DNA of 60,525 nt, counting the filler, from Sphacelaria rigidula (lineage: Eukaryota): the NCBI GenBank assembly GCA_964200075.2. It is 4 parts of 4 records of this genome, joined end to end, with 100 filler letters (N's around TTAATTAATTAA, not from the genome) between each part and the next. Parts side by side here need not be neighbours in the genome. Positions count along the whole stretch, not along the records: positions 45,472 to 60,525 come from CAXNAA020001931.1; 3 more parts are not named here. The stretch is one strand, 5' to 3'. Positions within the stretch are counted from its first letter, which is position 1. Every line of letters starts with the position of its first letter. Positions 45,308 to 60,525 of this stretch are shown here, in pieces. Made by a program: the position numbers and the translations under genes. Below the pieces are notes generated by a model. The model worked only from the letters and a program-made list of their open reading frames with translations. It searched no databases and was not told the origin of the DNA.

Positions 45308-45371
45308 GCCCCGGTGGCTCAGTTGGTAACCTGGTAACCCTCAGACGGTTGAGTTGTGGGGTTCGATTCCC
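45308..45371 (+). mobile_element. tRNA-derived SINE head or tRNA pseudogene, cut by contig end
   Basis: A box TGGCTCAGTTGG and B box GGTTCGATTCCC, but no clean anticodon arm. Confidence 0.6.
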
Positions 45372-45471
45372 NNNNNNNNNNNNNNNNNNNNNNNNNNNNN
45401 NNNNNNNNNNNNNNNTTAATTAATTAANNNNNNNNNNNNNNNNNNNNNNNNNNNNNNNNNNNNNNNNNNNN
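45372..45471. other. Artificial contig spacer
   Basis: Same N/TTAATTAATTAA/N linker. Confidence 0.98.
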
Positions 45472-46236
45472 GGGTTCTCGCCGGACCAGGTTTGGGGGGA
45501 GGGGGGGGGGGGCGGAGTTCAAATTCGCGCTCATTCCCTTCGCCCCTCGCACCGCTCTAAGTTTTTGTCGACTTTTTCTGCATCCTCTCAAGTCCCTCCC
45601 CTTCCTCGGGACGAGTCCGTTGTGTCCAAAGATCACCCCATCTCTCCCCCGGTACACGCCTCGTTACACTTTGGTATCGCGTATTGGAACATGACCAGAA
45701 CCCCAGTACCGTGTCGACTTTCGCCGAATTACTATCTTCGCTACTCGCGCCCTCGTGTTTTCAGCGACGGAAATCAAACGCGATTCAGAAAAGATCCAGA
45801 TCCATCTGTCGGGAATCGTACCTGCCTTCTTCGGACCTAACGGCCTCTACTCGTAGTTGTGCCATGATATCGGGGTTCAGCGGCCCGGGGGCCAATAATC
45901 GGAGTACCATTGCCGTCTTCAACTCACTTCCGTTGCAAGCCGCATACACATGGTCAAGAGAGTACCGTATCGATAGCTACATTAAAGCATGCCCATGTCC
46001 CGGGCTATGGGCAGGTCGATCGCATCTTCATCTTACAGTGCAACGTAAAAACCAATGCCGTACTGTGGGTGGCTTCAAACCAAGTCGCTACGCCTGTAGG
46101 ATTGCAAAATATGGCTATCGTGCTTCTTCAGTCACGTCTGCAAAGTATCTGCTCTGCACTGCTGCAGCACGAACTGTGATTACATTCCTCACACGCTACA
46201 GCGACGCGGTGGCGCTACTAAATATCCAATTCCTAG

Positions 46237-49200
46237 GGACCCAGCGATGGCATGGTACCCTGCGCCGACCATGGCAGCGACGCACTCATGTGGGCCGCGG
46301 GCAAGGGAAGTGACGAGATGTTGCTGCTCGAGGAACTTCTCACCCTTACCGGTGGTGTTGGCGTGGATCGGGAAAGTCATATGGGAGATACTGCACTTAC
46401 TATTGCGTGCGCGAGGTGAGTAGGCGTAGCAGTCATTCCAGTGAAGGCGGGAGGGGGCTAAGCTCTGTTTTTTTGTCTTCATATTTTATGATGGATCGAT
46501 TCGCCAATGTTCTAGTCTAAATCTTCCAAGAGATGAACCTGCGGAGAGAGCCTGGCGTTCGATCGTAAATGTGTAGAGTGAGCTCTTTCGCCATGGTTCT
46601 CGAACATAATATTCGGGTATATATATATATTGCGCATCTCGGATAAACTGTAATACACAATAATATTTTTTATCCGGGAGCGGGGACAGTGTTACGGCGT
46701 GAGCTGTACGAGTGCGGGAGATCGAAGCTGTCGGAAGCTCTCTCTTCTCTTCTCGTCAACAATGTTTCGAATACAGGTTTCAGAGATAGAGATCCTTCTA
46801 AGGCTCACCCGACAAACTTGCTGTGGCTCATTCAAGCGCCGCGGTGACCTTAGCATTCCCATCTACGTGACGACCCCGCGTGTCTTCGAAATACTCTCGC
46901 TTCTGTTACACTGCAAGCAACGACGCGTCCGTTTGTCACTATCGTGAGAACGACAAGACATGAATGCGACCACTTTCATGTCACGAAAAACAGGGGTCAC
47001 GTCGAGACGGTCCGAACTCTGGCCAAACTGGGACACGCCGACGTCAACTACGAAACTCGCTCAGGAAAAACAGCTTTGATCGAAGCCGTGAGGCGCAACC
47101 GACGAGAGGTGGTCCGCCTCCTCATGGAACTTCGCGTAATCATTCCTTACACAAACTATCGTGGACAGACAGCCGCTTGGTGGGCGTCGAGGCTGGGGCA
47201 TCAGGAATGCCTTTTGTCCATCACGAGAGAGGTGAACGCGGAGGCCACTTTACGGCTCATGTCGAGCCAGATAGGTGAGGGAAGGGTACGGTAACAGAAC
47301 CGATGGGCGATGCGTCGTGTGACGTGATGGTTGATCCGTTGTGCGGTCGGTCTCTTTGTTCCCCGCAGATAGCCGATTCGTTCGCCTGAATAATCCCTGG
47401 TTGCGTTTCATATTCTCCGGCTTCTTGATGTTGTGTGCGCGCAGATTGTTCGAGTAGTTCGGTTCTCTACTGCGATCGCTGCCATATCACTGCGAAACGT
47501 AATTGCGGCCATGTACCGCCAGAAGTTACCATGTAACGACGGTGGGCGAAGGACTCACTAGCCCAACACTGTCCTTGCCAAGATGCACGTGGTTTCTTCG
47601 CATAGTGCTACAATCCTCGAGAAAACGCCCTCAAGTTGCAACCGCCGCTTCACAGGAAACTCCGTTTGTCAGCAGTCTATTTTCTCTATTTTCCTTATCC
47701 TTGACAACATTTTTTTTGTAACATCTTGTCTTACGTGCGGCAGCACGAGGTGAAGTTAAAGCCATCCGTTTACTCGTGGAACTGGGTGAACCCTACCGAG
47801 ACAATCATTGCGAACAATTGAAGGGAGATATTGATCGGATCACGATGGAACTGGAGGAAGCTAGGACAAAGCTTCGGGATCTGTCCAACGTCAACGAAGA
47901 AGTGACTCCAGAGCTCGAGCGATTGAAGGCGAGCAACTTTATTGCACCAGATACATCCACGGATGACTACTTTTGCAGACACGAGTCAGCTAGGACACTG
48001 CTACGAGCTGGGCCAACCTAAAAACGGGCTCAAGCCCTCATAGCCATATCTCATGAATGCACACGAATATAGGTCGTGATCCGCACACCTTATTAACCGT
48101 TTAACCTTGGGGCAGATGTCTGGCTGCTCTACAGCCTGGGAAATTTTGTCTCGTTGGTTGAACACCATGTCGATTAAATCCTATGCCGTATGGAGATAGG
48201 GTCCATACTAACGTCTATACGAAACCCGAACGTTATACACCGCAGATGATGATGATATTTTTGGTGTGAACATTCCCTGGAGCACAGGAACACGACGAGT
48301 ACCCTCGCCTTTACCGAATAAGTCATTCATCTAGAGATATCGCGCAAGTGATGTTTTATATTAAAATCAATATATCACGAGCAGAGACACTAAGTGCACT
48401 AGATATGGGTTTATCGCCTCAATTTTGAGAGTTGTGCGTTAACAATTGGTACGGACAATCGGCAGGGCATTAAAAAAAAAAAAAATCAGGTCCATGAATT
48501 TTCTTTCTCTCATGAGTTAGGGATATCTTAGTGAAAGGAAGATGGCGTTTTCCCTCCCTAACTCAGTTCCTCACCTCAGTTTTTAGAGTTGTGCTTTGAA
48601 AGTAAGTGTGGAGAATCGCAAGGGCATACTAGAAACGAAGCTAACTGGATTATGACAGGGTCTATTTCGTGAGCTGGGAGCGTTCTCGCGAAAACCGGTC
48701 CTTACTAAACTGAAATGTCCTCAATTCACGCTATATATATATATATATATATATATCCCACACGTTTTACTTCTATAATTATGCCCTTGCGATTCTCCAC
48801 ACGAAGCACATATCTCAAAAGTGAGCTGCTAAATAGCTTGCAACATACAGCTCCGTTTGTAGGCTGGCCGAGCCTGTAAATAAGGGATTCTCACCTCAAA
48901 TTCGAGAGTTGAAATTTAAATATTGGTATGAGAACCGGTAGGGCACGTAAATATAGAAACTTCCCCAACCTGAGAGCTTTCATGAGCTAGGATCCTTTTC
49001 GTGAAAACTGGATCTTGGTTTTTGCCCTTACTTCATTAAAAAGTTGAAAAAAATCTCAGGGTGAGGGTTTTTTATTAATGTGCCCTACCGATTCTTCATA
49101 CTAAATTTTACATTGAAATTCTCAAAACGCAGGTAAGAATCCTTGTGTAACCTACAAATCTGGTTCTAGACTGGCCCAGCTCGTATATGCAAAACAATTC

Positions 49201-52200
49201 GTATCTATAGATGTACCAGAGCGACCAGTACCAGCGACGACAAAGGCAACAACTAAGCAATACCAGCGCTCGAGAACACCGCAATGACTCCACAATTTCT
49301 GGTTGTCACTGTTGCATTCCATCTTCACCCATCCATCCGTCCATGCCATACGTCCGATCACGCATCTCCGCTAGGGTGCTCTGGCGAAAGATCTAGAGAA
49401 ACGACGGAAGGTCCAAGGAGAAGCCGGCCGCGGTACAGCCGCAGACAACGGCACCCGGGGCATGGAGGGTGGCGGTCATAGACGCTGCGGTGGAAGAAAA
49501 GAGAGAAAAACAGCAGCACCTTCCACCTTCGTCGACAATATCACTTCCCGATCGTTCCAAGCGATGAAGACGCGGGCGCTGAGGGCTTTCCACCGTACCG
49601 CCACTCGCCTGCAAGCTCTCACGAAGGAGGACTTTCAGCAGGTCGCCGACCTCGAAGAGCTCGCAGAGTTCACCGTCAGTACCGTTACCATTGCTGGACG
49701 TACTGCCGACGACAAAACGACTCAATCCGCGGCCACTGCTGACGGGACTGAGGACGATGTCGGTGAAGAAAATCAAGATTCGAGGGAACAGGCCAAAGAA
49801 GAAGAAATTGACCCCACCCCGAGTCTGTCCTCCGCCCGCCGTACCCAAGCTGATAGCAAAATCGGACGGCTATCAGGCGCTGTGGACGAGGTCAAGGGAA
49901 TCGAGGGTACAGCAGTAGATGACAGTGGAGGAGCAAGGATTGCTGTGGCCTCGTCCGTCCTGCGCGTGCTTCGAGCTACGATCGTGATATTGGGGGGGTG
50001 CGGCCTTGGGGCTTTACCTTCGGACAGAGACCTATGGACAGCGGTGCGAGCAATGCTCCTGGATGGGAGCTTGCGCCACCGCATGCGACACTTCGATCGG
50101 TGCGTACTTTTGGCGCGTTCCGTGCGTGGTGCAAAGAAAACAAGTGTATAAGAAACAGCGGATCAGCGGTATACTGAAAACGTCTTTGTAAATGGAAGTT
50201 CAAGGTGCACTTGATCATCCGTGGCGGTGGTATGTAGTGTAGCTCCAAATGAAAGGGCGAATCAGTGGTGACCAGAACAATGTACGTGCCGTTGGCGTCC
50301 GTCCTGTCCCTGTAGCAAGCTCCGAAGTTCTTTGCACTCCTTCTATACGCAGACGAGCCGTGCCGGCCGGTGTACTGAACGGGGTGCGAGCGCTTCTAAA
50401 CATAAACAACGACATCAGAGGAGGGGAAGACGGACGCCCGGCATCTCATGAGGAGATCCCTAACCAAATGCCGCAAGATGAGCATATGAGGTTTATTACT
50501 GCCGCCGATGGAGTTGACACAGGTGCAGGACCTGCAGAAGGAAACGGCAGAGTTCGCAAGAGACACAGCGGGAGTGAACGTGATGAGGGCTCCTTCAAGC
50601 AAAGAAATGGTCGTCTCAACAAGGGCAGCGATGATAATGATGATGACGAGGGTACAGGGAAAGAGGACGGCCGATCGCGCGAAGAAAGTGAAAGCAGCGT
50701 AGAAGAGGACAAGGACAGATCAGACCCATGGGGAGAAGGCGCCGGTGAAGCAGCGTGGGGCAGGTGCAAAAATTAACAAGCCTCCGCTTACAAAATCGTA
50801 ACGCCGTTCACTTCATGTATGACATTATCAGCATTGATCGTCGATACTTTGCACGACCGTCCCCACAAGAGTTGAATAATGGCTACACGGCAATTCTGGC
50901 TCTATTTGCTGGAGGGCTCTCTTAATTTTTGTCCGAAACCACCAAGCAGGAATCTCGGTGGCAGTAAACGTAGACTCGCGTTGGTCGAGGCGCTCGGGTC
51001 GTGGTGCGCTGCAGTGTCAGCCTACGATCGGATCGTCCGACCAGCTCCCGGCAGTGCGGCGGAGCGGGCGGCGACGGCTGAGTTGGAGTGGACCGCTTTG
51101 GAACGGCGTATTGCTCGCGCGCAGCTTGACGTACAATTGGAGGAGTTTAGGTCAGCTCCGTGCTTTCCCTCTGACGAAGCAGTACAACATACGGGGTGGA
51201 ATATTAGAACTGGGGTGGAATATTAGAACTGGGTAGCATATGACAGCTTCTGTGACATGAGAGGGCGGTACCGTGTGATCATGCTGTTCCTCGGGATTCT
51301 GACCTTAGGTTTTGCACTTTCTTCGGGGATTTAAAAAAAAAGCCAAGCTTGCTGCTTTTGCGCGAGCAGTAGAATAATCGTTGCTGGAGCAGACTCGATC
51401 TGAATCTCGAATATTTCCTACCAGTTATTCCACAGTGCGAGCTGAAGTCCCTTATTGAATCGATCGTGCTCTCAAAACAACAACGAAGCACAAGGGAGGT
51501 CGTTCGTTTTGCAATGATGTCTTTCAGATGCTCATTATCACGTCCTCGATGATCATTTGACCAGTGCCGTGTCTTGGAGAGCGTCATTATCCAGCCCGTG
51601 CGACCGACACCCATTCGGTGACGGCCGCATTCATATTCCATCCGCAGATTCCAGCTTCTGTCGACCGAGACAGCAGCGGCCAAGAAGACCATCGAATACC
51701 TCACTCAGAAGCGAGCTTGGGGTGAATCTAAGCTGTCGGTAGCTCGCACTCTGTCCCTCGTCTCTCCGGCTGGTCATTCTCTCGTGTCCTGGGCCGCCGC
51801 GTGCGGTCAGGTGGAAGTGGTGGAGCTATTGATGGATCATGGCTCAACTGCGGGTCCCGGAGACGAAATGAGGACCGCATCTGCCATCATTATACAGGTA
51901 CTAGTTTTAGAGTGAAACCGTTGTGACAGCGCATGCAGTTTCACTCGGAGTATGCCCCTTGCGATTTTCTGCTCTCACTACCAATACTTGAGCCCATTTT
52001 CGCAGTAGCAACGGGGAGACCCAATGAAGAAGACAAAGAGCACGGCAGATGTTTACGATGATGCACTGCAGGGAACTTGGCAAGTCCCAGAGATCGGTCA
52101 CCTTATGAGGCCGTGTGGGTTATGATGTGTTCATCTGTTTCGCGCGGCGAATGTCGTCGTGGCTGCGTTCCTCACACACACTTCTCTTCCGATTGATGAC

Positions 52201-55200
52201 GCGAGGTCACGACCCAACGACCTCCTTTCTCCCCTCACCAATCGGTTCTTTGGTTGGCCATTCAGAAATTCTATCGATTTCGACGTTGGGTTCGGAAACG
52301 GATGTTTTCGCAATCGGCGGTCGGAATTGGCGGCGGTGGAAGTGGGACTGTAGAAGCAAACAAGGATGGGGGGCAGGCCGTCCTGAAACATCGCATGGAG
52401 TACGCCATAGCGTTACTAGGGACGCACTCTACGGTGGCGCGGCTGAGAAGGACCAGACGTTTCCCGCTCACAGAGGCAGCGTACAACGGGCACCACGATG
52501 TCTTACAGGTATGCGTGCTCATGAGCAGCAGACACCAGACACCAGACCCTAGCGGTACCTCTGCTCGGGAAAGAGATTCAGAGAACGTACTTGCACCGGC
52601 GTGGCGAGTGCTGTAGTCAGAATTATTCTCAAACTTTTGGGTGTCGGTTCCTGGACATTAGCGAGAGGATGGCTCGATCCGTCTACCTGCGTCCTTCCTA
52701 GCACGAATCCACCTCCTTCGCCCCCTCCTCAAGAGGACGCGGGGTCAACGACCTAGCTGCCTAGGCATGTAATAAATGAGAGCTCCACTCTCCCATCCCA
52801 TGTTGCCCGAGCGCTCCGTGCAGTTCTTCCGTATGCGACGGATACCGCTTTACGCCGCCTGCCGTACATGGCTCTACCCCAGTGCACCTCCTCCATTCGC
52901 TGCAATCGCGGACGGTGCTTTGGAGAACTATGAGCTTGGGGATACACCAATGAGCGTGGAGGATTGTGCGAAGGCGGGAGTCCGTGACCGGGGATGCAAG
53001 CAGCGTATCCCCGGGAAAGGATGGGTGGGGGAATGGGAAAAGGACAACCGGTTTGCGATATCGGAAAGGATCGCGGGGGCAATTTGGAGAGAGATCACTA
53101 CGATTGCTGAAATGGGTAAGGAGGAAAAGGCAAGAAGGAGAGCGCTTCGACTCAAGGTATGTCGTGATCAGCGTGCGTGTTTTCATGGGTGCGGTGCAGA
53201 ATATGCAGAATATGCAGAATATGCAGAATATGCAAAATATGCAATTGCTTCTGGCGTTCCTCCGGAGTCTCCACGTACTGCGTGCAGACAGGCGCTCTTT
53301 CGACTGGATTATCACATAAGTTTTTCCTACTGTGCCTTACTCCATGTCCCACGTCAGACATGAACGCATGATTTTAGGTGATAACAATGATCACCATGCC
53401 CCGCCGCCCTCTTTCCGCGTTCCGTAATGTCTGCCCGTGATGCTTCAGGCCCGTAGGCAAGAGGATCTGACCAAACGTATCGACATCGCGATAGAGGAAG
53501 GATATGTCAAGACACCGGAAATATTAGCCCTGTGCCAGGTAAGCCCTTTCTGCCCAGCAAACTTCAGTCCAAGATAGTATTTTTTTGTATCTAGTGACCA
53601 ACAAACATCGAAGATTGTCGGAAACGACAGGTGTACTAGGGACTGCTAGCAATGTGTATCACTTACGAGTATACCATGATCAAGGATTCCGCCAGAAGCC
53701 CCGGGGAACCTCTGGGGTGTTCCAGTAGTACTCTGGTCGATAGGGGATGGCGGCTTAGAATCTCCATTCCGTCTTCTGACTTGCCGCTATGATCGTATGC
53801 CCATTTTTCAACGCATACCTCGTCTACTTACCAGCCATGCAAATCCCTGAACATGATGCGTTATAGGAGGGTGTGTCCATCGACCGAGAGACGGCGGGTG
53901 GCAAGACGGCGCTGATCAGTGCTGCCGAGGAGGATCCATGTGCCCCCGGGCACTCATGGGTGAGGAACGAGGAGGGCTGGGAGGTGCTCGCTACGGCGCT
54001 GCTTCTGGACAGACGTATACGCCGCCCAAAGGTGGGTCGGTATGCCTGGAGCCACTTTGCTGTGACTCCCCGCGAGTATTGTCCTTGAAAAAGTAACATA
54101 TCATCCACCTTTTCTTGGCTCCTTGGTCGTCGGGAGCGGGGTCTGCTGTAAAGATCGAGTTACGACACTCTGGGGGAAGTGCGTGCTTCAAATGAAGGGT
54201 CGTTTCGTTGCAACGGTGCGGGATTCTCACGCCCCGGCCATGCCAGGGGCGGCTATATGCTTGGCGAAACGTAACCCCTCCCTGTCCGCCAACACGCACA
54301 CACCAACCCACTCTCCATGCCCATTCGGTATGACAGATCGATTACGAATCTCGAACCACAGGAGAAACCGCCCTCACGCGCGCCTGTACCCTGGGTCGTC
54401 TCGAAACGGCCGAAGTCCTGCTCGATCGTGGAGCAGACATCAATCACATCCCTAAGTTTCGGGGGGCGCAGGCACGGTCCTCCCCATCCACCCCGCAGAA
54501 GCAGCGGTCCGCAGAGCCAGAAATACAACGTCTGCCCCCGTCGACGGCACGGGGGCAGGAAACGGCGGCGGCGGCGGCGGAGGCGGCGGCAAGGGTGGCA
54601 CACTTACGGCGACCACCTCTGGTTACCGCTGCCGCGGCCGGCCACTCGGAGATGGTGAGACTGTTGTTGGACAGAGGAGCTGATACAACGCTGCGTGATG
54701 GAGAGGGAAAGACGGCTGCGGACGTTGCTCGAGAGGAAGGTTTCGTGGACGTGTCGAGGGAGCTTGCACGGGTGCGTTCTTCGCAATGGTAGTATTGATA
54801 TGTACATGAAAATCGATTTGTAGCAGTGACGACTCCGGTTAGGGGTGAGAGTCCAAGGGGTATGGGTGTGTCGCGACAATGCTGATGCCTTCACAAAGTG
54901 CAATTTACACCGCATTCCACTCCATGAACTCTCACCATGGCTGAGTTGTGCAGCGTCGATTGTCGCGTGTCTCACTGTACATATGGCGGTGACACGAAGT
55001 TGAAGAAGCGATCGCAGAACAGTGGGTATATCCGGCCACCGCATCCCAGTGGTGAAACTGTCGAAACTGTCTAAATTGTCGTCATCGATCAATTTGGGCG
55101 GAGAAGTGGCTTCAATTATTTATTTCACCGATTTCCGTCGTGGAGAAATTCTGAAAGCCGACAAGCTGCGGGGTTGATGGTAGTCATGATCCAACACTCG

Positions 55201-58200
55201 ATAGCAAAATGCAAGGTCAGTACCGGGAGGGGGTGTGTGTCCATCCCCCGAGATTATGGAGTCGCCCTGACGAAGGGGAGGGGGTCAAAACTATGACGAG
55301 GAAGCAATATAGGTATATACTGTATGTGTATGTGTATATATCAACTGATAATGGGTCTCCAAAAACGCCACATTTTTTGCTGGAGATGCAATCATCGTTT
55401 TCTTGAAATTTGCGAAGGAAACGAACCCTAAAAGAGAGGTGGTGGTAAGAATGTTGCTCAGATTTCCTACCGGGATGGTTCAATGCGGGCCGAAGCCTCT
55501 GTTTCAACTCCTGGACGGCAATTTCCTCACCTACATCTGCACTCTGTATCGATTCTCGACTGCTCTGCTTATGTCGCGCAAGTCTGGGAGGCAACAACCC
55601 CCTCCGGCGCACTCACCTCATATACTAATACATACATGAAAGTATACTTTAGCGTGATAAGGTCATACAACGCCCAACTTTCTGTCTGTCCAAGTGATTT
55701 CGCATTCTGTTATGTACCTCCGTTCATTTCCCTACCTTCCCACTCGGCCCAGAAAGAACATGGTCACCTTGGGCTTGCCGTCGGAGAGCGCGGAGCAGCA
55801 AACCCATTGGTCCCTTGTGGTTGGGGGTGCGGAAAACTACTACCGACCGGAGACGACAAAATTGCGCACGAAAACGGGTGCGCCCATCGAGAGGTAATTG
55901 GTATGGTGCTCGACAACATGCTTGCTGGGTCAAATCTGCATTCAGCTTTTCCAGCCTCCCTCATGCAATTTCCAACGCCACGTTGCACGCCATTTAGCAA
56001 GCCAACTGTGTGAAGCTCCAGTCTTGTACTCTGGATTGTCTCTTAGTCTAAATTACTCTTTCGGCGTGTCAATTCACGTGCGATATCCACAAACACGTCC
56101 GCGCATTCAATGTGGCGTGCTTGCAGGTGGAATGTGCGTATTCCTGTGGAGCGTATCGGCTGCAACATCGCCAGCTGGAGCGCCACCTGACGGAGTTTTG
56201 TCCCCGACGTCCGGTAGTGTGTAGATCTCGGTGCGGCATGACAGTTCCCGCCGAGGAGTACCCAGATCACCAGGCAAGGTGTTCTTCCTCATCTGCTGAT
56301 TGAGGTCCGCAATCAAGATAAATAAATCGATGAGGGACAAGTGGGGCCGTTTCTCATAGCCGCCGCATGGTGTTCGCACATACTCGCCGATTAGGAAGCT
56401 TCTGATATCATCAGAGCTGCTGAAAAGTCTCGCGTGACAATGGTATTAAGCAGGGAGTGTATCGGTACAAGCTGACCGTACCACGCTTTTGCTGGCCTAC
56501 AGTGGTGAGCAAAGCGACTCTTCGACAATCAGGAGTCAAGTTTGCATGGCGAGGGCTGCGAAACGACTGTGTAGGCCACAGAGCTTCTATTTAGAGTGCA
56601 TTAATTCGATACCCGACGCCGTTTTGCTAATGTGTGATGGAAGCTCGTGTGTCTGCCGCACGCTCGATTGAGGCAGTCGACTCATCAACCAGAAACACCT
56701 CTCTTGCCCCCCGCTTCCGCGTTCCTCCTTCACTTTTATGTCGTTCAGGCGACTGTGTGCACGATGCGACCTGTGCGTTGTCCTGCGTGTCACGACAAGG
56801 TAGTCGCGTCGGCGCTGAGCAGGCACTTGGAAGAAACCTGCCGGCGGAGGCTAGAGATCTGTGAGCAGGGATGCGGAGAGAGTGTCGCCGTGGAGGACAT
56901 GCGTCGTCACTTGGCTGAGGCACGTGTTGCGTATAGCTGTAGCGGTTGCGGTTGCGCGATGAACGACGAGTAAGAGAACGGTGGTGGCAACGGCGGCGGG
57001 GTTGCGCTGTGTGATTGGCTCGGGGGAACATTCCTTCTACCGTAGCAGTAGGAGAAGGCTGGCGAATATGCTTGTAAAATGTCGGGCTAAACCCTCAGAT
57101 GTTTGCCGTCCATTTGGGTTCAACTCCAAAACCATCCTCAAATGCACATATATGCCCCCAAGTACGTTTACAAACGTCGTTGGTTTGTCTCGACAACACA
57201 GGCATGCCCGCTAATGAACATCCTGTGTCACCTGGGTTGCGGGACAACAATGTGGCTCAAAATGAGACCAGACCACGAGAAGTCGCTGTGTAGCGAGCGG
57301 ATGGTGAAGTGCAAGTGGAGATGCGGGCAGGAAATAAAGGTGAGGCATTGCGACGCGGTTCGGGTGGAAATTTAACGCAAGGAGCTGCACCAGTCTATGC
57401 CTACGCGGCAGAGTTGTTCGGAGGTCCGAGGATTTCAAATTTGATCGCATGTGTCAGAGTGTTCGGAACGAGGCACGCGCGTTACAGCAAGGGCGCCAAT
57501 TTCCCCGTACATTCGTGAGATCTAGTCATCCCAATAACCTCGAGTACACTGGCGATATCAGAAGACTCGTAATTCGCGCGCCTTCACCTTCATGCCGTTT
57601 AGTAGCGTACATCCCTTTTTCGTGCTGACGCTCTCAGGCCAAGCATATCTTTGAGCACGAACAGCGGGAATGTCTTCACGTGGAGGTTCCCTGTGGCAAC
57701 CGCTGTGGAGAGACGGTGCCTCTAGGGAAAAAGAAAATTCACTACGCGCAGGAATGCTCACATCGTTTCGTCGAGTGCGGAGTCGGCTGTGGGTACAAAA
57801 TCCGTGCAAAGGTCAGCAATTCCCCTGAGGTTCATGCTACGTTTTACTGTAACCCCTTCCACGGAATACTATTTTCTGTAACCTTATTTTTGTTAACCCC
57901 CCCCCCCTCCTCCCCTTCCCCCGAAGGAATGCGTGATCAATGGTCAAACGACTAAGGCAAGCAACAAATGAGTACCCCCCCCCCCCGGAAGTCCGCAATG
58001 TAGTGCCAGCTTGTACGCGCAGCAGAGGTGGTATCTTTATCCTCGACCTAACCTCCAACGGCGGGAATACTCAGGCGACGGAGAGATGATAGTGTGTTGA
58101 AAACCGGCGGGGGCTTCTCGCGTTGAATAAAATGTGAATTTCGGGTCTTCTCGAAGAATGTTCCTGAAACGTTATATTTCCGGCTGTAGAGTAGTAGAAC

Positions 58201-59568
58201 AATAGGTGAAGAATTAAAGCAGTCAGTACCACACCGCCAAACGTTGCCCAAATTGTACACTGTGCAAATATTTATATGGCACAGGGATATCGATAGACGG
58301 ATTCATTCTCCCCTGACAGGATTTGGCTTGTCACGAGGTCAGCGAGTGCAAAGCTCGAATGATCATGTGCCCCCGCGGATGCGGTGACGGACCGCTTCAA
58401 GCGAAAGTTACAGAGATCCACTTGAAGCACGACTGCATACTCAGGACAGTGAAGTGTGCGGCATGCGGCGATGAAGTTTCCGCCGGCGATCTGGACGCCC
58501 ACAAGGCGGACACTTGCAGGTATTTACGTACTTAGGAGACAAGTGAATATCACACGCACTCACGCAGCAGAACACCGGTAACGGACAGTTGATACATCGC
58601 TTGCAGTGCAGAGTTTACCTGGTACCCTTGTGCTACGTAGTGTAATGATATTTGCACTCGATATCGAGACCGTCGTGTGCGACTTGGGCGCGGAACTATT
58701 TGCTCGGGTGCCTCAGACTATTATCATCCCAATCCCGACTTCGGCATTTCATATCAACCGGTGAATGTGATTGTATTGTAACGTCAGGCGGCGGCTAGTC
58801 GTCTGCAGCAATGAGCGCTGTACGTTGCACCTTCCCGCGGAGGACATGGAAATACACGAAGCGATGGAATGTTCTTATCGGACAGTTTGGTGCCTTCAGG
58901 TAGACAAATCACCCTGCAATAAACCTCTTGTCACGGTTTTCCCATGAGTGTTGAGTCATATATCGAGGTGCAGGCACCGCACGGAAGAGAAACAAAAAGT
59001 GCACGGTTCATGGATCTTCCATCCTGTCACGCGGGAGCGCAAAAAGCAACAAGGGTGGTACGCAACGCCACAAGGTTTTGCACATTTTCCCGGACAATGA
59101 TGATATCTCACAAGAAAACAAGCAGAGGCTATCTTCCTGCCGAAGTTGCAGCGGTGAAAGTATCCACCGAAATCGGGACGAGGTAGAGCACAGCCTCTCG
59201 GGTGTTTCTCCCCAGGTATGCACTTTACGCCGTGAAAACGTTATGGGAACAAGAACAATGTACCGGCGGTATAACGCCTTCAATGCTGCCACAAACCTGA
59301 TGGCGGTAAAAGCGTTGAAGCGCACCCTCAGCTGGAGACGACGCAACATATCATCCTGGGATGCGCAGGTGGCACGGGCACGCCGATTCTGCGCGTCTGG
59401 CTTACGTTAATGCCACCTGCCATTGCCCGCTATCTCCGCCGTACTCTTGTGATCGTCGAATTTGGAAAGGGATGTGGAGAGACCATGATCGCGGATGATA
59501 GACGGCGCCATCACACGCAAACTTGTTCCATGCGGTACCTGCTGTGCCCTTTGGGTTGCCCGAAGAAG
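46237..59568 (+). CDS. Ankyrin-repeat / dynein-stalk-like / IQ / multi-TRAF-zinc-finger protein (partial, 20 exons, ~1560 codons)
   Basis: Exons 46237-46415, 46994-47274, 47744-47928, 49375-50099, 50353-50763, 50950-51150, 51648-51897, 52266-52508, 52824-53156, 53449-53538, 53867-54031, 54337-54771, 55753-55893, 56127-56273, 56749-56919, 57202-57339, 57638-57811, 58320-58519, 58788-58899, 59470-59568 all join in phase without stops. Ankyrin motifs (GDTALTIACARGHVETVRTL, GKTALIEA, GETALTRAC..LLDRGADIN), IQ motif (IIIQKFYRFRRWVRK) and 13 complete Cx2-4C...Hx3-4C fingers. Confidence 0.92.
48004..49183. mobile_element. Tc1/mariner-type non-autonomous element (~1.2 kb, TA TSD), second copy
   Basis: TA|CGAGCTGGGCCA ... 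TGGCCCAGCTCG|TA; shares TTGGTGTG..ATTCCCTGGAG and AAAATCAATATAT..CGAGCAGAG blocks with 26799-27988; intronic. Confidence 0.82.
53196..53245. repeat. 9-bp minisatellite (GCAGAATAT)5
   Basis: Tandem units just inside the intron after 53156. Confidence 0.85.
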
Positions 59569-60525
59569 GTGATTGGGAAAAGACAGAGTTAAAGGTAGCT
59601 CAGAGGAAACGGGAGGTTTGTCAGCCAAGCGCATGAAAGGTATTCTCCACCAGGAAGATTCCCTTGGGTTTCGGACATATGGGAGAGTCACGTGAAGCCC
59701 GCGGTACAAATCACACTTTCATCACAATACTGCACGCCTCTCCCATCTTGCAAATCGAACAGGTTTGGCGTGTCAAACGCTCGCATGCTCCGTTTTTCGT
59801 GAACGGCACAGGAGATGGTAGCTATGAGTTTCATGATTCGAGTCATCCTACGATAGGGGGTGGGGATTTTGATTGCACGAAAAAAGAGGCTCATAGGTGT
59901 GGCGGGTCGTCTGACGCACTCGCGGTATGCTTGTACTTGGTTAAAAACGGTGTCAAGCAGTATAAATGAGCGCTATATGTCTATAACAAGCTCGTTTGAA
60001 CAACCGTTGCTGCTTTCAACGACGATTTAGCTTGGAATTTCGTGCAAGAACTGGCCCAATATACCCCCTCCCCCTCCTATCGTAGGATGACTCATTCATT
60101 TTCCTTGTTCTTTGAATGTGCAATCGGTCGAGGTTTTGTGAACGTAATGGATTGACTTGGACCGCAGTTTTGACCCGCGCCTGATCTATTTTCCTATCTA
60201 CGTTCGGCCCTGGACCTTTCTTGCTTGTCTTGTTTCCATGTTATAGGTCCGAGCATCGGAGATCGACGACCATATGGATCTGTACTGTCTTCGGCGACAT
60301 CTGGCTTGATGCGTATATACTTGACGAGATTGTTGTTGGTCTCGACGACAGCGAGCTTTGGGTTCAGAATCTGTGTACCTGAGGAAAATGAAAGTAATCA
60401 CTCCCTTCAGACACAAGTGTCAGTACCACTGAAATCATCGCCCCACCTAATATTCTTGCTATTGATTGTTGTTGTTGTTGTTGTTGTCTTCACATTAAAA
60501 GCCGTTCCGATATCTGCGCGGTACA

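Follow-up and report, generated by a model that had tools for sequence, protein, structure and literature searches.

In dynein heavy chains the stalk emerges from the AAA4 and AAA5 modules of a ring of six AAA+ modules, and conserved prolines with a role of their own stand where its first coiled-coil helix (CC1) meets the head and where the head meets the second helix (CC2). The head, or microtubule-binding domain (MTBD), consists of six helices, H1 to H6, lying between CC1 and CC2 (Lacey, 2019; PMC6629372). Here a module resembling this stalk and MTBD is described from a gene of the brown alga Sphacelaria rigidula, where it is found between two ankyrin repeats of a protein in which Pfam recognises no motor family. 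The gene was analysed on a stretch of 60,525 nucleotides (the window), which comprises four parts of four records of GenBank assembly GCA_964200075.2, joined with 100 filler letters between each part and the next; positions 45,472 to 60,525, which include the gene, come from record CAXNAA020001931.1, and all positions given here count along the window.

No dynein stalk or MTBD outside dynein heavy chains was found described in the searchable full-text literature, in which most subscription journals are not covered. Seryl-tRNA synthetase-MTBD chimeras would resemble the algal protein in that a globular domain foreign to dynein carries a dynein stalk and MTBD; in the chimeras this base determines the register between CC1 and CC2, and hence microtubule affinity, and they have been used for electron cryo-microscopy (PMC6629372). 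These chimeras were built in the laboratory and contain 12 heptads of authentic dynein stalk, whereas the algal module is natural, diverged, insert-bearing and conserved in brown algae. DNAHX, reported as a non-motile dynein heavy-chain subfamily (bioRxiv 10.1101/2025.01.18.633724), provides a likeness in the non-motile use of dynein parts. By the title of that preprint DNAHX is still a dynein heavy chain, whereas the algal protein has no dynein part beyond the stalk module.

The algal module shares with the dynein stalk/MTBD (Pfam MT, PF12777) the order CC1, short-helix head, proline and CC2. In the pairing made by hhalign it also shares an H2 resembling VxxVxxAVxxL, a tryptophan at the start of H3, an FD pair, LxxWxxAxxxY in H6 and the proline that follows, and once its insertions are removed it is of similar length (322 alignment columns against 344 profile positions). 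It differs in emerging from an ankyrin-repeat loop and not from an AAA+ ring, and in that the CC1 proline is not kept; furthermore, AAA_8 and AAA_9 flank MT in the dynein segments tested, whereas Pfam detected no AAA family in the algal protein. Axonemal dynein has a flap between H2 and H3 (PMC6629372), whereas the algal insertions lie inside CC1 and in the H1-H2 and H5-H6 loops.

Results

Arrangement of the stalk module

The region 47744-51760 on the + strand comprises five exons of one multi-exon gene. This region had originally been predicted to encode a dynein-stalk-like hairpin inserted in an ankyrin array, and all of the peptides quoted in that prediction were found in open + strand frames at the places given for them. 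Between the two ankyrin repeats the chain is predicted to run out along a long helix (CC1), to form a head from five or six short helices, and to come back along a second long helix (CC2); the module takes the place of the loop between two neighbouring repeats (Table 1). The flanks, including the half repeat that precedes CC1, are taken here to be ankyrin repeats by the ankyrin consensus and by the Pfam matches of the whole proteins.

Protein P0068 (1250 amino acids, 'unnamed protein product [Sphacelaria rigidula]') was reached by cluster look-up, and as its exon cores are 100% identical to the window by tblastn it is the annotated product of this gene. The stalk exons are joined to ankyrin exons on both sides in P0068 and in two further annotated, spliced proteins, P0003 (1262 amino acids, Ectocarpus sp. 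4) and P0005 (766 amino acids, E. fasciculatus), and the domain build is common to P0068 and the two Ectocarpus models. Ankyrin matches above the Pfam cut-offs lay to either side of the stalk, and in P0068 they were Ank_2 (132.7 bits in five stretches) and Ank (98.6 bits). The TRAF-type zinc finger (zf-TRAF, PF02176; cut-off 27 bits) scored 27.2 bits in P0068, just above the cut-off, and 26.6 bits in P0003, just below it. No AAA+, dynein-motor or other motor family was detected by Pfam in P0003 or P0068, where the matches were to Ank families and zf-TRAF only, which bears out the claim of a stalk module between two ankyrin repeats of a motor-less protein.

Both acidic inserts that had been said to break the head into pieces are real (positions in Table 1). 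CC1 had been said to end at ELERLK, and this was not upheld; the helix runs on into the next exon. The stretches between the conserved head blocks vary in length and sequence across the family, and the pieces of the head core are net basic (+4, +4, +2 and +2). In H1, where many family members have basic residues, Sphacelaria rigidula has QQ at the corresponding positions.

Two short motifs stand in the inserts. DPTPSLS lies in insert 1 at 49810-49830, with P..PSLS invariant in family alignment A1, and DPWGxGxGExxWG ends insert 2. Both look like short linear motifs, for example binding or phosphorylation sites.

Conservation in brown algae

A protein search with the largest exon returned 14 relatives, P0003 and P0005 among them, and a second search returned 26 fragments that cover the later exons. 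In alignment A1 (15 sequences) 41 columns were invariant, and 41 columns were conserved at 90% or more in alignment A5 (25 sequences); alignments A1, A4, A5 and A6 were all checked block by block. Conservation of the head blocks across the brown-alga homologues is strong and beyond chance. The A1 profile, which represents exon 1, recovered 34 proteins at E up to 0.001 from 1.84 billion cluster representatives, each of 379 amino acids or fewer; these were exon-sized frames on unannotated contigs, and all were fragments of the family. A near-length search for full-length relatives recovered P0003 and P0005 only, and when 20 fragments of the family were looked up in their clusters, P0068 was the one member with a name. 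The known range of the family is the brown algae, and the only named carriers are Ectocarpus species and Sphacelaria.

Comparison of the head with dynein

A dynein reference was assembled from metagenome contigs, which were scanned for a brief pattern typical of the P-loop of dynein AAA4; cytoplasmic dyneins may be under-represented in a reference seeded in this way. Among at least 120 loci, 28 had an uninterrupted intronless frame of at least 700 amino acids downstream of the motif, and the stalk regions of these 28 dynein frames were aligned (A7). All ten dynein frames tested carried PF12777 (E 7.5e-14 to 1.2e-83), with AAA_8 and in many cases AAA_9 beside it.

Profile-profile comparison (hhalign) of A1 with A7 gave an alignment of 247 columns (probability 53.2%, E 1.3e-4). 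Comparison of A5 with A7 gave 32 columns (E 0.011), which correspond exactly to H6 and the invariant dynein proline. This proline, P238 of A7 on the CC2 side, was paired by hhalign with the proline of xPGSAA, conserved at 90% or more in the family. The insert columns were then taken out of the checked alignment A6 by script, and the insert-free alignment was compared with A7. The basic variant scored 35.1 (E 5e-4, probability 31.5%), and variants in which the conserved insert motifs were kept and eight residues peculiar to P0005 were dropped scored 39.6-41.9 (E 1.2e-4 to 4.6e-5, probability 54-69%). Keeping the motif at 50723-50761, which faces the dynein FxPE loop, lifted the score from 35.1 to 41.4, and dropping the eight residues of P0005 raised it slightly. 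The insert-free alignments covered 128-130 columns at 19-21% identity and spanned dynein columns 104-235, which take in the last part of CC1 and the head up to and including H6, and the global mode of hhalign gave P values of 4.2e-6 to 1.5e-5.

The pairing made by hhalign ran through the head in order. At the end of CC1 and in H1, SRALRxFQRSVxRLQALTEDDFxxVA of the family was aligned with AxPAxxAAxxALxxLxxxDIxExK of dynein; in H2, AAVLRVLRATVLVLGG with VxxVxxAVxxL; in H3-H4, LWxAVRPMLLDGSLRHRVRHFDRR with SWxxAKxxMxxxxFLxxLxxFDKD; and in H5, VPAGVLDGVRALL with IxxxxxxxxxPY. The insert 2 motif DPWGxGxGE faced FxPE, and ALGSWCASVSAYDRLxxxxPGSAA, which represents H6 and the proline opening CC2, was aligned with GLCxWVxAMxxYxxxxKxVxPK.

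Controls gave lower scores throughout. Reversal of either query or template gave scores of 14-15, and none of 150 decoys, made by permuting and flipping 10-column segments, reached the real score (maximum 23.5, median 13.8). When nine consecutive windows of the dynein motor from the same loci were compared, the stalk window alone scored (36.2, E 3.3e-4), the other eight giving 11.6-17.9; the window just downstream of the stalk window presumably holds the coiled coil of AAA5. The motif correspondences that had been drawn by eye in the original prediction are those that hhalign finds, and its proposal that the inserts be removed before comparison was rewarded by a head collinear with the dynein MTBD and a match specific to the stalk region. 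These profile data show a collinear similarity to the MTBD, specific to that region, which is of moderate strength and not conclusive.

Two observations were made on the dynein reference itself. The context of the AAA4 P-loop was near-identical, LVGVGG(S/T/W)G(K/R)QSL, in all 60 frames with the longest downstream runs among the matches listed. Many of the contigs with the AAA4 motif are long intronless frames, and are a handy source of dynein motor sequences.

Structure prediction

AlphaFold was run twice on the whole of P0005 (766 amino acids), the second time with a 72-row alignment. Both models were weak overall (mean predicted local distance difference test [pLDDT] 55.2 and 58.2, predicted template modelling score 0.31 and 0.32), and individual helices were predicted more confidently than the whole. 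In these weak models the head between CC1 and CC2 contained six helices in the first and five in the second, and in the second model helices 204-226, 230-237, 351-369, 380-393 and 395-408 had pLDDT values of 61-83. Foldseek searches of the PDB with both weak whole-protein models returned nothing at E up to 0.001. A phmmer search of PDB sequences with P0005 found ankyrin proteins only among the best 60 of 360 matches.

Three insert-free pieces of P0005 (108-245, 348-432 and 618-722) were also folded together by ESMFold2, without use of the family alignment. The interface score ipSAE was 0.51 (median of three runs) against 0.00 for the best control, the runs agreeing in at least 42% of contacts and the partner pLDDT being at least 66. 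The verdict of the method was 'weak support'. In calibration this mark was reached by 51 of 78 solved complexes and by 2 of 108 mismatched pairs; scores no higher than 0.60 accounted for only 5 of those 78 complexes and for all four of the mismatches (of 180) that passed. This job, which bears on the pairing of CC1 with CC2, was unlike those on which the method was calibrated, and the predicted association carries little weight.

Gene models and splice sites

Splice sites were placed by the best fit of the window to P0005, and the features of the locus are listed in Table 1.

Table 1. Positions of the exons, introns, module parts and flanking domains of the ankyrin-stalk gene in the window.
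Feature	Position	Strand	Evidence and remarks
Ankyrin-repeat exon upstream; its last part encodes the first half of the repeat before the stalk	46992..47274	+	Pfam (frame 46854-47294, Ank_2, E 1.7e-11); tblastn of P0005 and P0068
Intron 1	47274/47744	+	GT donor, AG acceptor
Second half of the repeat before the stalk (helix pair ARGEVKAIRLLVELG), then short loop EPYRD	47744..47802	+	Sequence; acceptor
CC1, first part of outgoing long helix	47803..47928	+	Aligns to P0005 113-154; AlphaFold on P0005 gives one CC1 helix, 113-178, pLDDT 96-97
Intron 2	47928/49375	+	GC donor, AG acceptor (homology-based model)
Intron sequence with dispersed repeats and (TA)12 run	47929..49374	+	Repeat scan
CC1 continued (GALAKDLEKRRKVQ...)	49375..49437	+	Conserved in family; missing from annotated P0068
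Disordered linker inside CC1 strand, 36 amino acids	49438..49545	+	Variable in A1; composition; P0005 equivalent 179-203 non-helical, pLDDT ~50
CC1 head-proximal helix (SRSFQAMKTRALRAFHRTATRLQ)	49546..49620	+	P0005 helix 204-226, pLDDT 75-81
H1-like helix (TKEDFQQVADL)	49621..49653	+	P0005 helix 230-237; hhalign against dynein LxxLxxxDIxExK
Insert 1, acidic, disordered, 94 amino acids, net charge -14	49654..49935	+	Charge; P0005 equivalent pLDDT <50
H2-, H3- and H4-like helices (VLRVLRATIVILGG / SDRDLWTAVRAMLL / GSLRHRMRHFDR)	49936..50099	+	P0005 helices 351-369, 380-393, 395-408
Intron 3	50099/50353	+	GT-AG
H5-like segment (RAVPAGVLNGVRALLNI)	50353..50404	+	Conserved in A5; hhalign against dynein IxxxxxxxxxPY; P0005 helix 420-429 in first AlphaFold model only, low confidence
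Insert 2, acidic, disordered, 106 amino acids, net charge -11	50405..50722	+	Charge; pLDDT <50; length varies in A5
Motif DPWGEGAGEAAWG, DPWGxGxGExxWG, end of insert 2	50723..50761	+	At least 90% conserved in A5
Intron 4	50763/50947 or 50950	+	GT-AG
H6-like helix (KRRLALVEALGSWCAAVSAYDRIV) and conserved proline (51047-51049)	50966..51049	+	P0005 helix 621-644, pLDDT ~80
CC2, first part of returning long helix	51050..51150	+	P0005 helix 651-719, pLDDT 86-94
Intron 5	51150/51648	+	GT-AG
CC2, second part, ending ...ARTLSL	51648..51759	+	Acceptor at 51648; start of X5 contig
Next ankyrin repeat (AGHSLVSWAAACGQVEVVELLMDHG)	51760..51903	+	Weak Pfam Ank match, E 0.018, single frame alone
Downstream exons: IQ-like stretch, further ankyrin repeats, C-terminal TRAF-type zinc finger	52224..56300	+	tblastn of P0068

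The annotated P0068 uses another GT-AG pair for intron 2, with the donor near 47986 and the acceptor near 49483. It lacks ~35 residues that are kept in the other family members covering them and has in addition 19 residues that are found in none of them. The absence from P0068 of the stretch with family consensus QASLxxDLARRRKIQREAAR is due to this different pair, and from the comparison of sequences the GC-AG model of intron 2 is taken as correct for the protein. In P0005 eight extra residues (VRGPGLSI, 407-414) stand between the HFDRR and IPVGV blocks; they are present in neither P0003, P0068 nor the fragments, and so probably reflect a splice-site error in that annotation.

None of the sequencing records listed as containing this stretch is classed as RNA, and run X5 is an RNA run only by guess. 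One X5 contig covers 52399-52508 and continues with 30 letters identical to 52824-52853; the stretch that it lacks, 52509-52823, starts with GT and ends with AG. A second contig begins exactly at 51648, the predicted exon start. The X5 contigs show that the downstream part of the gene occurs in spliced form, and have no bearing on the stalk exons.

In the protein the first ankyrin repeat beyond the stalk is directly succeeded (~51886-51903 and 52224-52290; P0068 720-735) by IIQKFYRFRRWVRKR, which is conserved in Ectocarpus as IIQSFYRFRRYLRQ. We take this stretch to resemble the IQ calmodulin-binding motif by its consensus; Pfam IQ gave no match in P0068 at E up to 10.

Repeats and sequence variants

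Intron 2 contains direct repeats of 31-62 nucleotides at 48409-48627 and 48890-48920, an imperfect 36-nucleotide inverted repeat at 48931-49095 and the (TA)12 run at 48732-48756. DNA runs covered 47912-48339 at a depth 50-90 times greater than in the flanks. Two tandem repeats were found in introns of the gene: a 19-bp duplication (2.2-2.6 copies) at 51193-51241, ~40 bases past the donor at 51150, and a 9-bp repeat (TGCAGAATA, 5.4 copies) at 53195-53243, beyond the exon ending ...ALRLK. Undetermined bases, read as X in all frames, lie upstream of the gene at ~45330-45470. DNA run X3, which has the same species label, differed from 46200-52600 at dozens of single positions (40 among those listed and 16 more) and is presumably from another strain or haplotype; runs X1 and X4 each had one changed place relative to the window.

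Discussion

These data appear to favour, with moderate confidence, the reading of this region as a dynein-type stalk module in an ankyrin-repeat loop of a non-motor scaffold protein, and we are slightly more confident that the head itself is a true dynein-type MTBD. The algal module is probably derived from the dynein stalk/MTBD; it fails Pfam membership and is without the defining attachment to an AAA+ ring.

Under this reading an ankyrin gene of a brown-algal ancestor would have received a copy of a dynein heavy-chain stalk, and three disordered insertions, inside CC1 and in the H1-H2 and H5-H6 loops, would have been gained later. Since the module starts and finishes between adjacent ankyrin repeats, its two ends have to come together there, and CC1 and CC2 are accordingly predicted to pair in antiparallel fashion as a hairpin. 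The net basic head would sit on the microtubule lattice as the dynein MTBD does, and the stalk would hold a platform of ankyrin repeats, IQ-like stretch and TRAF-type zinc finger, with any recruited partners, ~10 nm off the microtubule. As there is no AAA+ ring or ATPase to slide CC1 against CC2, affinity would be fixed by the base, and thus set by the helix register that the ankyrin array imposes; the array may in this respect act like the synthetase of the chimeras. The acidic inserts beside the head, or ligands of the ankyrin array, may tune this affinity, and the acidic loops with DPTPSLS and DPWGxGxGExxWG could be built-in regulators of it, perhaps by imitating the acidic tails of tubulin. 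Microtubule binding by the head in the cell is put forward tentatively, at slightly less than even odds, and a flagellar role, which the original prediction had raised as a possibility, would be speculative. It is a still more tentative proposal that this is the first natural stalk/MTBD outside dynein, copied from a dynein gene, and serves to tether an ankyrin/TRAF signalling platform to microtubules, register-fixed and independent of ATP, with acidic loops that regulate its affinity.

It is somewhat unlikely that the module is derived from dynein and no longer binds microtubules, its head having been turned to another ligand, or the stalk merely keeping parts of an ankyrin/TRAF signalling scaffold rigidly apart or helping it to dimerise. 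The loss of the dynein CC1 proline would suit such a role, as would the large acidic inserts that flank the head, the QQ in H1 of this species and the lack of an ATPase to regulate affinity. However, the head core is net basic and its blocks are strongly constrained, and in the hhalign pairing the landmarks of dynein have been kept: the tryptophan in H3, the FD pair, the H6 pattern LxxWxxAxxxY and the proline that comes next.

It is also unlikely, and slightly more so, that the head has nothing to do with dynein and is a bundle of helices peculiar to this lineage, borne on a coiled-coil arm; its motifs would then resemble those of dynein by convergence or by chance among amphipathic helices, and the arm would bind another partner or simply space the two ankyrin blocks. 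The results that weigh against a dynein origin are gathered here, beginning with the lack of similarity to dynein at the level of HMMER. The hmmscan against PF12777 that the original prediction had suggested was negative, with no match at E up to 10 in P0003, P0005 or P0068, in seven exon frames or in five short pieces; the algal module differs in this from dynein, as the same Pfam library detected PF12777 in all ten dynein segments tested (gathering score 24 bits, below which the algal family falls). Searches of 177,635 PDB sequences gave ten matches for A1, none of them dynein (best E 0.22), and no match for A5. The search of 1.84 billion proteins with the A1 profile recovered neither a dynein, nor a bridge to dynein, nor a full-length relative. 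No fold match was found for the head, the models being weak whole-protein ones. The family alignments are shallow (effective number of sequences 1.5-2.5) and consist mostly of exon fragments, the parts of CC1 and CC2 align without confidence, and the near-invariant proline of dynein CC1 (P108 of A7) faces leucine in the family.

The probabilities given by hhalign, 31-72% across variants, are likewise below the 90% or more that is usual for safe homology. An unrelated bundle, however, would not be expected from the form of that match: it is collinear over all of the head helices across its 128-130 columns, it falls on the MTBD window only among the nine dynein windows, it scores above all 150 decoys and both reversed controls, and two separately aligned exon blocks each land at the expected place in the dynein profile. 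Language-model features, an unrelated method, name the same Pfam family out of thousands: in the ESM Atlas, residues 308-382 of P0003 (the H2-H5 block) gave 30 matches, 26 of them in the set of clusters with PF12777. The two best matches scored 0.94 and 0.93, for clusters in which 14% and 30% of members carry PF12777; a score of 0.9 is also attained by 4-10 of every 100 shuffled proteins. The shared features, 156 and 153 of 256, are under the 170 typical of matches within a family, and such counts denote distant relatives or chance. Residues 578-678 of P0068 (H6 and CC2) named no family in the ESM Atlas (best score 0.81).

A gene-model artefact, in which stalk exons of a separate transcript were fused by predictors to two ankyrin genes, is very improbable: the stalk exons have no contig in X5, the one small RNA-like run, the annotated models differ at one intron (P0068 against the Ectocarpus models) and P0005 has its odd insertion of eight amino acids, but the same domain order occurs in the annotations of three species, the exons lie on one strand with the reading frame kept through all phases and with canonical sites except for one GC donor, and the ankyrin-stalk junctions lie inside single exons (47744-47928, half repeat and CC1; 51648-51903, CC2 and next repeat), so that the join is independent of splicing.

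If a dynein-type stalk does stand in the ankyrin loop of this protein, the stalk-MTBD would be an independent, transferable unit, and the algal proteins would offer a natural counterpart of the engineered synthetase-MTBD chimeras for the study of register and affinity. The locus would also illustrate how annotation at the level of HMMER misses a small domain that disordered inserts have divided among several exons. To our knowledge the cytoskeletal regulators of brown algae are poorly known, and the family would represent a new class of microtubule-associated scaffold in these organisms.

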